Below the pieces are notes generated by a model, which made no database searches, was not told the origin of the DNA, and saw nothing but the letters and a program-made list of their open reading frames with translations. Shown here piece by piece: positions 21,431-64,000 of a DNA stretch of 64,000 bases (its first letter is position 1; the number at the start of each line of letters is the position of its first letter). Source of the stretch: a virus; IMG/VR virus record IMGVR_UViG_3300044846_002555, positions 64,001-128,000 of that record; one strand, 5' to 3'. Both the position numbers and the translations under genes were made by a program.

Positions 21431-21601
21431 ATGAAACTGATTAGAACAATATCAAATTTGGTTACAGAATCTAAAAGAATTTACGAAGAGGCCTGTGAAA
21501 AAGGTGTCAACGAAAAAGAATTAGATAGATTAGAAAAAAACTACAATGAATCTTTAAAACTTTTAAAGTTGTACGAAGGTTTAGGTAAAAAAACGGAATA
21601 A
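21431..21601 (+). CDS. small hypothetical protein (56 aa, absent from ORF track)
   Basis: MKLIRTISNLVTESKRIYEEACEKGVNEKELDRLEKNYNESLKLLKLYEGLGKKTE*, TATTTAT 5 nt upstream; fills the intergenic gap. Confidence 0.7.
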   Translation: MKLIRTISNLVTESKRIYEEACEKGVNEKELDRLEKNYNESLKLLKLYEGLGKKTE

Positions 21602-21603
21602 TA

Positions 21604-24600
21604 TTACGTTCCGTAAACTATTTCAATACCTTCAATGTGTATAGTCCATCTTAAAGTTTCTCCAACAACACCGGTTACCTGTATGTCTAAAGCGTCATTA
21701 GTATCGTCAGCGGTAATTGCAACGTCATAAGATGAGTTAGTTTCTACATCAGTACCAATAGTTGATACAGTACCGATTAAAGAAGTTACTCCACCTACAT
21801 TCTTAATCGCAACTTTTCTTATATAGTGAGCTCCTCCTGAACCATCTGATTTAATACCACCAATATTTACTGTAACAAACATTGCAGTTCCTGCAATTAC
21901 GGATATAAGTTGAGTTGTTCCATCTAAAAATATATTAACTGGTGTCGCATTTGTTGTTTTATTTCTACCAACTAAGTCAATTTGTTGTGATGTTCCTTTT
22001 ATTAAACCATTAAAACTACCTGAAGAAAAAGACCTTTGACCGAAACGAGGTGCACATGATAATGTTCCACCAAGAATTGATGAATAACAACCTGTGGTAG
22101 TGTTGCCACAACCTCCACCAATAAATGAATGGGTACCACATGAAATATTTGATATACCACCAACAATTGCCGAACAACCACTAAACACGACATTTCCATT
22201 ACCACCACCAACAAAAGAACCTGATGAACAAACCCCATTTACGTTTCCACCAACAATTACAGATAGGGTTGTACTTGATAATGCGGGTGTTGCAATACAG
22301 TTTGATTGACCACCACCAATAAAGTTAGAATCACCATGAGTTCTATTTGACATACCGCTAACAATTGCTGAGTATCCATATACCCATTGGCATGTAATAC
22401 AGTTTCCATTACCCCCACCTATAAATGAAAAACTTAAACGAGTTGTATTATTATTACCCCCACCAATAAATGAAGAGTTTCCTATAGTAATATTACAATA
22501 ACCACCACCAATTGTTGAACATCCCCCACTTGAATTATTCTTTTGACCACCACCAATTGTTGAAGTATCTCCTGATGAGATATTATTATATCCACCACTG
22601 ATTGTTGAAGTGGCTCCTGATAAACGGTTTTTAGCTCCACCTCCAATTGTTGATATTCTACCACATATCACATTACTATAACCACCACTAATTGTTGTGA
22701 AATAACATGATGATGATGTATTATCACAACCACCGGCAATTACCGAACAATTTCCACAAGCGCGATTTTTATATCCACCACCAATTGTTGAGGTAGCACC
22801 GGATGAGACATTACATCTACCACCAACAACAGTTGACCAACTACCTGAAGATAAATTACAAACCCCACCACCAATTGTTGAACACGCCCCTGATGCGATG
22901 TTTCTATAACCTCCACTTATTGTTGATAATTTACCCGCATTAAATGTACAAGTTGGACTAGTCGTTACAGCTCCTGTTGTAAAGTTAAATGTTCCTCCAC
23001 TAGTATTATTAAAAATACCACCACCGATAGTTGTACCTAAAGAACAACATTCGTTATTTGGTGATTGTATTCTATTATTAAGACCACCACCAATTGTTGA
23101 AAATCTTGCATTTATTATGTTAATACAACCACCACCAATTGTTGAAGTATAACCTGAAGAATTATTATTACTACCACCACCAACAGTTCCAAGTATTCCG
23201 TAGACACGATTGTCAATACCACCCCCAATTGTTCCACCATCACCAAAAATTCTTTGTGATTGACCACCACTAATCGTTGCTCCTAAACAATACACAACAT
23301 TTAATGCACCTCCTCCAATGGTTGAAGTATTTCCGCTGATTACATTATCAATTCCACCCCCAATGAATGAATCACTACCCGATACACTATTAGACCTACC
23401 ACCACCAATTATTGAACATAAACCTGATGCGGTATTCTTACAGCCACCACCAACAAATGAACAATTTCCTGATGCGGTATTACAAAAACCACCTAAAATT
23501 GATGACCTTAAACCTGATGCGGTATTACATTGACCACCACTTACTGTTGAATAATTACATGATGATATATTTTTAAAACCACCACCAATTGTTGAACAAA
23601 CCCCTATGGCTTGATTACAAATTCCTCCGGCAATTGTTGAAGTAGTTCCTGTTGCGATATTATTACATCCTCCCCCAATTGTTGAACTATTACCCACAAC
23701 AAAATTTTTACAACCACCACCAATAAATGAATGGGTACTTGTTATAGTATTTTGACTACCACCAACAATACTTGAAGTGGCTCCTGATACTGTATTACCA
23801 ATACCTCCACCAATAAATCCTTGACAAAATCCACCTGAACTTGTTGTAAAATTTCGTAAAAATGGTTGTGAGGAAGAAAAAGGACTCACAGAGACAGTTG
23901 CACCACTAACATACAAGTTTGTATATGGTGAGGAATATGTTTGTCCTGTAATAACTACGTTTCTACTACATCCGAAGTTATCATATGTTAATAAAAGGTC
24001 GTTTACGCTAAATGATGATAATTGATTCCCGAACAATTGTAATGTACAAGTATTTGCGGAATATGAACTTATTAGTTGAGAATTGCCTATAAAGTTTAAT
24101 GTTCCACCTCCAATTATAGAATGTCTTGCGTAACTTACGTTAACGCTTCCACCCCCAATAACACCAAATTCTAACACAACTTTATTATTATTACCACTTA
24201 CAATACCACCACCATAAGAACATTGAGCCAAACAGTTACCACATCCTCCTAAAATTGCTGCTCTAACTCCATATGTTTTATTAGCTGTTCCACCGGCTAT
24301 AACACCATCTTCACCAACACCTGTTGTTCCTGATATTAAGTTACCTCTACCTCCACCAATAAATCCGAATTCGTTACATATTTTATTATTTGTTCCACCT
24401 GCGATTACTGAATTTGATGGGTTCATTGTATTACTAGTTATACAATTGTAAAAACCACCACCTATTGTAGAATATGTTCCACAAACGAGATTAAGTCTAC
24501 CACCGGCAATTGTTGAGTTATTACAACATGTTGTATTACAACAACCACCACCAACAAATGAAAAACATCCTGATGATGTATTTCCTAATCCACCACCAAT

Positions 24601-63147: not shown

Positions 63148-63755
63148 ATGTCATAATAGAATGAATTAGTGTCTTCACTAACCCATCGGTCTGATTGATT
63201 TTCAACTGATGGAAGGTCAGTATCAACTTTAAATTGTTTTAAATTGTCAGGTAATTTTTTTGTTACCCAATTACTATCTTTCCAAAAGATTCTATTGTTT
63301 GGTTGACATAAAAGATATCCATCATCACCACTAAATATGTGACCACATTTATAATCGGATGGTTCATCACTATATGGGTTATTAAACCAATCTACAGTAA
63401 ACATATATGTTCCCCACACTTTAGTTCCGTCTCTCAATACTATTTCTGCTCTATGATAAGCTAAAAAGTCATATTCAGTTATTGTAACATTTTCTGAAAA
63501 ACAATCCCAAAGTTGTTTATAGTTAAACGGAATGTCGTTGGTAGGTTCTTTTGTATATATTTCAGAGATTGGGACTCGACTTCTAACCATACCGTCATCG
63601 GTCATTACATGAAAAGTTAAAATAACTCCTGATACTGATTGAATACCAAAACAATATATGTTAAGGAAAAAATTTTTATCTTCTTCATTTTTGGTAAAAT
63701 GGTATTTTCTTACTAACGCTTTAAAGCTCGGGATGTTTGAATTTAATGTACTCAT
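63132..63755 (-). CDS. conserved phage hypothetical protein
   Basis: 207 aa; QLWDCFS, YMFTVDW, K..H, QPNNR. Confidence 0.55.
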   Translation of the reverse strand: MSTLNSNIPSFKALVRKYHFTKNEEDKNFFLNIYCFGIQSVSGVILTFHVMTDDGMVRSRVPISEIYTKEPTNDIPFNYKQLWDCFSENVTITEYDFLAYHRAEIVLRDGTKVWGTYMFTVDWFNNPYSDEPSDYKCGHIFSGDDGYLLCQPNNRIFWKDSNWVTKKLPDNLKQFKVDTDLPSVENQSDRWVSEDTNSFYYDIKKED

Positions 63756-63832
63756 ATTACAAAAATAATTGAAGTTAATACAAAGAGAAGTGTTTAAATC
63801 TTTTGTGTTATATTTATATATAAATATTTATT

Positions 63833-64000
63833 ATGGCAAAAAGATTTATAATTACTGAAGAAGAAAAAGGCGATATCCTTTCTAAATATGGTTTAGTTAG
63901 TGAGCAAATGAACCAACAAAAGGCGGTTGATACTCAAATGGAAAAAATTAAACCTGAAACTGGTGGTAAATATTGTTTTGGTGACCCAAAACGACTTCAA
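63833..64000 (+). CDS. 3'-truncated protein with leader MAKRFIITEEEKGDILSKYGLVSEQ
   Basis: Open to the window end; TATTTAT at 63811 and 63825. Confidence 0.6.
   Translation, partial: MAKRFIITEEEKGDILSKYGLVSEQMNQQKAVDTQMEKIKPETGGKYCFGDPKRLQ

Follow-up and report, generated by a model that had tools for sequence, protein, structure and literature searches.

A 64,000-nt stretch of viral DNA (the window; positions 64001−128000 of the linear 142,859-bp IMG/VR contig IMGVR_UViG_3300044846_002555) contains six plus-strand genes whose products, otherwise unrelated, begin with a short helical leader ending in a hydrophobic residue, a variable residue and Glu. A first-pass annotation of the window had proposed that these leaders direct late proteins to the phage head and are removed there by a prohead protease, and the six N-termini, together with an internal segment (MTETELVNLIEKIISEQ) of one of the proteins, were found exactly as it had quoted them. 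The contig (~31% G+C; 46% complete by CheckV) is a fragment of a ~320-kb T4-related giant freshwater phage from an uncultured group, probably with a host among the Bacteroidota. A megablast search with 48 kb of the window found no match among 50,697 phage records, and the phage therefore has no close cultured relative; judged by the capsid protein of the lineage, the nearest cultured phages were Microcystis phage Mel-JY01 and Flavobacterium phage immuto, at 40−43% identity. For comparison, we fetched 80 related viral contigs and used three complete or near-complete relatives, G001 (318 kb), G002 (321 kb, with terminal repeats) and G003 (241 kb), in which the leader genes of the window have orthologues.

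We refer to the six genes by their first position, and an arrow marks the proposed cut. The gene at 21431−21601 encodes a 56-aa protein with the leader MKLIRTISNLVTE↓S (nt 21431−21469), which its G001 orthologue keeps. The 200-aa product of the gene at 44674−45276, which overlaps the end of an amidase gene (44091−44690; Pfam PF01510) and has no promoter of its own, starts with a 40-residue leader ending in GIINE↓Q (nt 44674−44793). At 46923−48443 lies the gene for a 506-aa hyper-acidic zinc-ribbon protein, whose leader ends in VLKE↓N (nt 46923−46979) and which also carries an internal leader-like segment, MTETELVNLIEKIISE↓Q (residues 277−292; nt 47751−47798), conserved in ~40 relatives, and a C-terminal leader-like element, EEFDRMKSLMGY. 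The gene at 53023−54399 codes for a 458-aa core protein consisting of an N-terminal helix with the leader MRLTNTLSTLITE↓Q (nt 53023−53061), a Pro/Lys linker, a middle domain and a C-terminal leucine-rich repeat (LRR) domain. A 454-aa protein is encoded at 58625−59989, with the leader MSGKIILTNKDLHQIVKQIKE↓Q (nt 58625−58687) and a body that starts with EGDYYKISPEEY. The last gene begins at 63833, so that its 5′ part (63833−64000) falls in the window and its end at contig position 128186; the 117-aa product has a LysM-like body behind the leader MAKRFIITEEEKGDILSKYGLVSE↓Q (nt 63833−63904). Leaders of this kind are mostly 13−40 residues long, lie at the extreme N-terminus, are predicted to be helical and end in hydrophobic-hydrophobic-(S/T/N/K)-E; in some, a second conserved box follows 20−40 residues into the protein.

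The loose motif (L/I/V)xE, which had been taken as the shared signal, proved uninformative, its frequency near N-termini being that expected by chance. [LIV]xE ended at about residues 8−32 in 51 of 150 open reading frames of the contig, occurred 77 times in the first 30 residues of the contig proteins against 68 expected, and was present within residues 2−44 of 73 contig proteins compared to 65.7 ± 5.2 after shuffling each N-terminus, so that about half of the proteins carry it by chance. A very different result was obtained with a strict motif, [LIVMF][LIVM][STN]E[QSN], which we defined on the contig and G001 and which fits five of the seven quoted sites; at the two exceptions, VLKE↓N of 46923 and QIKE↓Q of 58625, the orthologues hold hydrophobic-hydrophobic-x-Glu at the same place. 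Five contig proteins carried the strict motif against 0.9 in N-terminal shuffles, and within residues 2−44 it was found in 26 proteins of G001 (2.9 in shuffles), 25 of G002 (2.8) and 26 of G003 (2.2), a 9- to 12-fold excess over within-N-terminus shuffles in these three genomes, with none of 500 shuffles exceeding 9. The motif was also concentrated at the start of proteins, with 31 of 50 occurrences in G002 (p 1e-13) and 26 of 49 in G003 (p 2e-10) lying within the first 40 residues; the same held for 8 of 14 occurrences in phage immuto (p 0.001). When Asp, Lys or Gln replaced the Glu of the strict motif, the distribution was flat, with no N-terminal bias. Thus, N-terminal leaders exist far beyond chance in this lineage, and dozens of late proteins per genome carry them, with ~25 or more strict-motif proteins in each of G001, G002 and G003.

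Five leader classes emerged when every N-terminus of the contig and of G001 was read. The first, MK(Y/I/L/V)(L/I)ITE(S/N)Q(Y/L)..(L/I), was found on 38 genes in G001−G003. A second recurring leader peptide has the form (K/R)(I/V)(I/V)RLTESDL.RIVKRVI(S/T/N)EQ, and a third, ..E(E/D)I.RI..(L/M)......(I/L)(S/N)EQ, sometimes contains Gly-Tyr. In a fourth, M.L.E.IK(R/K)(I/V)LREE, Arg precedes the Glu, whereas the near-universal ending of the other leaders is two hydrophobic residues, S/T/N, Glu and then usually Gln. The LRR-type class, M(K/R)(F/I/L)T..L...I.EQSRF, occurs on 53023 and 21431, which share M[KR]L..T[IL]S.L[VI]TE[SQ].R[IF], 10 of their first 17 residues being identical or conservatively replaced.

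The claim that the leader is shared by otherwise unrelated proteins was borne out by swaps at one locus, by exchanged leaders within a family and by metagenome clusters. In related phages (L007, L037, L040), the 25-residue leader at the 63833 locus is identical at 16−25 of 25 positions, and it precedes at least three unrelated body types: LysM-like, two PG_binding_1-like, or a fourth, unrelated body. The contigs L026 and L007 provided the clearest case, with 25 of 25 leader residues identical and unrelated bodies behind them. The similarity stops right after (S/N)E(Q/D), which is NEQ in L026 and L007, and the bodies score 24−27 in local BLOSUM62 alignment compared to 380−478 for true orthologues. 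The locus has the appearance of a cassette in which small peptidoglycan-binding modules are swapped behind one conserved leader. The reverse arrangement was found in G001, where a 386-aa protein (G1_116306) carries the LRR-protein body of the 53023 type behind a MKLIITETQYRILTEQ leader. Overall, the bodies of 53 leader-bearing proteins from the contig and G001 fell into 41 BLAST clusters, mostly single genes or orthologue pairs, and some of the G001 leader genes formed BLAST-related pairs.

On a metagenomic scale, a query made of a single G002 protein's 40 N-terminal residues retrieved more than 1,100 clusters of 61−195-aa proteins from a set of 5.8 billion proteins. In the 23 cluster sequences that we read, MKK(I/V)(I/V)RLTESDL(V/T)R(I/L)VKRVI(S/T/N)EQ was near-invariant and the bodies after EQ mostly differed. 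Of these 23 sequences with the RLTESDL leader (metagenome proteins within P0123−P0240), a few carry LysM, none is a named protein and most bodies are unrelated. A tblastn search with the RLTESDL..IVKRVI.EQ leader against the 50,697 phage records gave no match. Other leader bodies were OmpA-like, PG_binding_1, LysM or DUF5872, or had no assignment, and ten more leader-bearing bodies from G002 and G003 had no Pfam match. The codons for the conserved Ile, Thr and Glu of the MK.(L/I)ITE box range freely over their synonyms (for example ATT 13, ATA 9 and ATC 16), and selection therefore acts on the peptide rather than on the RNA. The leaders are portable protein-level modules exchanged between unrelated bodies.

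In each of the four families open to this check, orthologues kept the terminal Glu, at up to ~80 loci, despite drift elsewhere in the leader. In 39 relatives of 58625, the leader drifts in sequence and length and always ends in hydrophobic-hydrophobic-x-E(Q/E) before the conserved body (EYYKISPEEY). In 28 distinct relatives, orthologues of 44674 keep YG(I/L)(I/L)(T/N)EQ or have the shorter SRMLLEQ. In the ~40 relatives of 46923, the N-terminal halves are variable, and an N-terminal (I/V)(L/I)(K/N)E and an internal (R/K)LTE(S/N)EL..IEKI(V/I).E(Q/E) are kept; by its pattern, the internal segment looks like an internal cut site or the end of a long propeptide of ~292 residues. As a side observation, the 46923 protein could serve as another core or scaffold-like protein, or be a polyprotein with an internal cut. 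The 53023 N-terminus, M[KR][FIL]T..L..[LIV]I.E[QND]SRF, is shared by 80 loci, and its Glu13 hardly varies.

AlphaFold2 (AF2) models of 58625 and 53023, computed from family alignments, had confident bodies, with a mean predicted local distance difference test (pLDDT) score of 86 and 83, respectively, and the leaders were low-confidence helices set apart from the body. In the 58625 model, residues 1−20 scored 41−56 and the mostly helical body 80−95; in the 53023 model, helix 2−24 scored 46−69 and was followed by the Pro/Lys linker, with the body at 80−96. The C-terminal LRR fold of 53023 was confirmed, and its middle domain (residues ~80−340) resembles gp205 of the Pseudomonas jumbo phage PA5oct, annotated in its record as a structural protein by electrospray ionization tandem mass spectrometry. 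The gp205 gene lies just downstream of a gene, annotated as hypothetical, that by eye resembles a large terminase gene. The 53023 gene has more than 3,500 homologues and is a conserved core gene whose conservation runs through the proposed cut, which contradicts the earlier view of the LRR protein as a variable effector. The only recognisable part of the 58625 body was a short LRR stretch (residues ~64−120). A weak PHROG match (E 5e-5) of 58625 to ‘head maturation protease’ was rejected, the family profile hitting only a short LRR segment in PDB and the AF2 model giving no Foldseek match in PDB; kinship between 58625 and 53023 was likewise rejected, the two proteins being unrelated.

As the first-pass annotation had noted, TATTTAT lies upstream of five of the six genes, on the coding strand, with 44674 as the one lacking it. 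The first T of the box is 12 nt before the 21431 ATG (21419−21425), and the boxes at 46901−46907, 53000−53006 and 58614−58620 lie 22, 23 and 11 nt before the ATG of 46923, 53023 and 58625, respectively; 63833 is preceded by two copies (63811−63817 and 63825−63831), 22 and 8 nt before its ATG. As a word, ATATTTAT was not over-represented in the window (20 occurrences vs 17.9 expected). At 4−30 nt before the start codons of G001−G003, TATTTAT occurred 224 times compared to 56 for its reverse complement. Two spacings were distinguished, one at 19−30 nt before the ATG with the consensus aTATTTATa..AAAA, and one at 11−13 nt, found at 80 genes of G001−G003 and often right behind a GC-rich terminator hairpin. 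With the box at 11−13 nt the transcript would start at or next to the AUG, and genes of this group (in the window, for example, 58614−58627 and 21419−21433) are therefore probably expressed from leaderless or near-leaderless late mRNAs.

In the relatives, the box stands before genes for scaffold, protease, portal, terminase, baseplate and tail-fibre-like proteins and for GIY-YIG endonucleases, so TATTTAT appears to be a general late-type promoter, its timing being judged from the genes behind it. The co-occurrence of leader and box that had been suggested was detected, TATTTAT preceding 33 of 80 leader genes (41%) and 225 of 1,034 others (22%; odds ratio 2.5, p 1.7e-4). Of the portable promoter-plus-leader tag proposed for the phage, however, only the leader held up as a portable element: a fixed promoter-leader cassette was ruled out by the two spacings (11−13 vs 19−30 nt), by the absence of the box at 44674 and by its presence before late genes in general. 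Three G001 genes with the same box (71235−71975, 79274−79918 and 310612−311310) look by eye, from the N-terminal sequences of their products, like GIY-YIG homing endonuclease genes, recalling the homing endonucleases of T4, which are expressed late. The T4 late promoter, TATAAATA, is read by gp55; like it, the lineage box is an AT-rich 7−8-mer at a fixed short distance before late head, tail, terminase and homing endonuclease genes, and no −35 element was evident. Unlike the T4 promoter, the lineage box, (A)TATTTAT(A), is the reverse complement of the T4 word and has two spacings, the second of which implies leaderless or near-leaderless mRNAs.

The head-maturation genes that such a system would need are present in the complete or near-complete relatives. 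In each of G001, G002 and G003 we found both a prohead protease of the T4 gp21 type (Pfam Peptidase_S77, E 1e-24 to 1e-27; nt 43090−43815 in G001) and a major capsid protein of the gp23 type (E ~1e-64). T4 gp23 aligns with the capsid proteins of the lineage through the propeptide (NKW, EG.GL, ENQ, SFL), and in this alignment GSFLTE↓AEIGG of T4, with the cut at Glu65↓Ala66, falls on AS(F/Y/H)LINE↓A(T/S)S of the lineage; in phage immuto, QIVSE↓A corresponds to the T4 position. The capsid-protein maturation site predicted by this homology has the same form as the leader ends. The T4 protease gp21 shares this need for Glu: its cut follows L/I-x-E, and Asp as the final residue prevents processing (PMC9026906). 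In T4, 10-residue capsid-targeting sequences with the same L/I-x-E ending load the internal proteins IPI−III into the prohead core (PMC9026906, PMC5694885, PMC3012670). Strict-type motifs were found near the N-termini of several G001 head-module proteins, namely the capsid protein, the product of a 455-aa gene next to the terminase gene (LINE↓G, LLNE↓A) and those of a 165-aa and a 339-aa gene, and a hyper-acidic, gp22-like scaffold (gene at 41145−42695 in G001) carries SLTE↓Q at about residue 48. No such motif was found on the large tail and baseplate proteins of G001. The cultured, T4-like Flavobacterium phage vB_FspM_immuto (NC_055915; L144−L153; host Flavobacterium sp. LMO8) also has an S77 protease and leader-like N-termini, including MKKQILSEQF(K/R)RMQ(F/K)LAGIITE↓S and, on one protein, MIKLIDLLTE↓S; a pattern search for an MK.(L/I)ITE start in this phage gave no match.

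These findings make it reasonably probable that the leaders constitute an expanded, multi-class version of the T4-like system of capsid targeting and protease release, acting on late proteins, as judged from sequence and from analogy with T4. During prohead assembly, the helical leader would attach its protein to the scaffolding core, as the T4 capsid-targeting sequence does; the gp21-type protease would then cut after the Glu and free the mature protein inside the head, and the released proteins would leave with the DNA at infection. More tentatively, one can go further and picture a multi-class modular address code, in which interchangeable helices, each ending in the head-protease site, would bring unrelated proteins into the capsid, dozens in one genome and thousands of families in metagenomes, with peptidoglycan-binding modules and proteins without a known fold among the cargo, and in which helix copies that lack a cleavable Glu keep some of the cargo tethered.

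Several observations weigh against capsid targeting. For this lineage, it is a prediction from sequence, not a reading of a virion proteome, that the proteins bind to the core, are cleaved, reside in the head and are injected. The 142,859-bp contig itself, at 46% completeness, contains neither the Peptidase_S77 protease nor the gp23-type capsid gene, so that the head module is placed on the missing half; the argument from protease and capsid protein rests on the relatives, to whose proteins those of the window are ~65−99% identical. The strict motif was refined post hoc from the data and re-tested afterwards on G002, G003 and phage immuto. The leader P1′ residue is mostly Gln, whereas the T4 sites seen and the lineage capsid-protein site have Ala or Ser. 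Conservation of 53023 does not stop at the proposed cut (EQSRFQVLYDKLVKP) but reaches about residue 27, and the AF2 helix spans the cut, so that this N-terminus may be more than a removable tag. If cut, the MK.(L/I)ITES box would leave no more than a 7-residue propeptide. Some leader-like helices lie inside proteins or at their C-termini, as in P0124, which ends in ...LVRIVKRVINN, and at the end of 46923. Tandem arrays of 100−136-aa genes in G002 and G003, all starting MKY(L/I)ITESQ(L/I)D..IF, look as if they were paralogous. Finally, several bodies are peptidoglycan-binding modules (LysM, PG_binding_1, OmpA-like) that would act in the periplasm, unlike the T4 internal proteins; they fit envelope-acting ejection proteins better than cytoplasmic effectors.

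Some of these points would also suit the main rival reading, shared docking or oligomerisation helices that stay uncut and are not specific to the head, the partner being a chaperone, another part of the virion or the cell envelope and the Glu-Gln belonging to the helix. Such helices would be expected to stand where no cut frees a body, as in P0124 and at the 46923 end, to be conserved through the proposed site, as in 53023, and to have no need of a T4-like P1′ residue, and the many peptidoglycan-binding bodies point in the same direction. We consider this alternative unlikely, because the Glu is needed (its Asp, Lys and Gln versions are not enriched), the leader ends have the same form as the capsid-protein site aligned to the mapped T4 cut, the body swaps break exactly after E-Q, and the tail and baseplate proteins lack the motif.

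Plain paralogy, in which diverged multigene families would keep an ancestral N-terminal segment with no targeting role, draws on the tandem arrays and on the BLAST-related pairs of G001, and it appears improbable as a general explanation. Most bodies show no mutual BLAST similarity (41 clusters among 53 proteins) and those assigned so far are different folds (LysM, PG_binding_1, LRR and a novel helical body); the 63833 locus has identical leaders in front of non-homologous bodies, bodies that are homologous carry different leaders, and across metagenomes conservation of the leader far exceeds that of any body.

Chance or composition in the Lys/Glu/Ile-rich proteins of an AT-rich genome, or a nucleotide-level signal for translation of leaderless mRNAs, is very improbable: the generic [LIV]xE is indeed at chance level in the contig, two of the seven quoted sites lie outside the strict motif, and the first codons may matter for initiation at the many leader genes with TATTTAT 11−13 nt before the ATG, but the strict motif exceeds shuffles 9- to 12-fold in three genomes, a second conserved box follows 20−40 residues into the protein, orthologues retain the Glu, and the free use of synonymous codons at conserved positions rules out the nucleotide-level signal. 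Chance is thus largely refuted for the strict motif and stands only for the loose (L/I/V)xE definition. Paralogy and chance explain parts of the data, not the whole.

If capsid targeting and release are indeed what the leaders serve, this large and widespread freshwater phage group packages ~10 times more kinds of protein than the T4-type set. The packaged and injected proteome of uncultured phages would then be readable from sequence, giving a handle on candidates for anti-defence and envelope-breaching proteins, and the tags could serve as packaging handles for Bacteroidota phages. Phage immuto shows the same features and, being cultured, is usable as an experimental model. Our literature search found T4 and giant-phage precedents and no description of these leaders. 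The principle of a capsid-targeting sequence combined with the gp21 protease is already textbook knowledge for T-even phages; what is new here is its setting in a distant, uncultured giant lineage, with several leader classes, ~25 or more tagged genes per genome and more than 1,100 tagged clusters for one class.

The T4 capsid-targeting tag is the classic means of smuggling anti-defence proteins into the host with the DNA, known for a handful of T-even coliphage proteins. Compared by eye, no leader class looks like the T4 capsid-targeting sequence, MKTYQEFIAE; the head-maturation systems are homologous, and within them the likeness is one of design by analogy rather than of a conserved peptide. 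In both cases, an N-terminal tag of 10−25 residues ending in hydrophobic-x-Glu stands on otherwise unrelated proteins, and bodies are swapped behind one conserved leader at one locus. The relatives resemble T4 further in encoding a protease of the gp21 type and a gp23-type capsid protein with a predicted propeptide, and expression, late in T4, is predicted to be late here from the promoter type. The 10-residue T4 sequence is found on IPI, IPII, IPIII and Alt, and the ip loci are polymorphic in T-even phages (Mullaney and Black 1996 and Repoila et al. 1994, as cited in PMC9026906, PMC3012670 and PMC12373910). In contrast to T4, the lineage has several leader classes rather than one, leaders of up to 40 residues that often contain two boxes, and ~25 or more tagged genes per genome compared to 3−4 in T4 and ~10 known across the T-evens; the P1′ residue is usually Gln, some bodies bind peptidoglycan, and leader-like helices are also internal and C-terminal.

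The second precedent comes from the giant phages phiKZ, 201phi2-1 and SPN3US, in which gp175/gp245 remove the propeptides of head and ejection proteins by cutting after (S/A/G)-x-Glu (PMC5694885, PMC9026906). Many head proteins of a giant phage are processed after Glu there, as is predicted for our lineage, with several candidate cuts per propeptide, and SPN3US gp53 and gp54 provide a case of identical N-termini on diverged paralogues; 46923, with its candidate propeptide of ~290 residues, would resemble their long propeptides. The phiKZ-type sites have a small residue at P3 and propeptides mostly longer than 100 residues, whereas P3 and P4 are hydrophobic here and most leaders comprise 13−40 residues, so that the leaders fall outside the phiKZ pattern and only 46923 could reach a propeptide of such length (~292 residues). 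Moreover, those phages have no T4-type gp22 scaffold, in contrast to the lineage described here, in which a gene for a gp22-like hyper-acidic scaffold is present.

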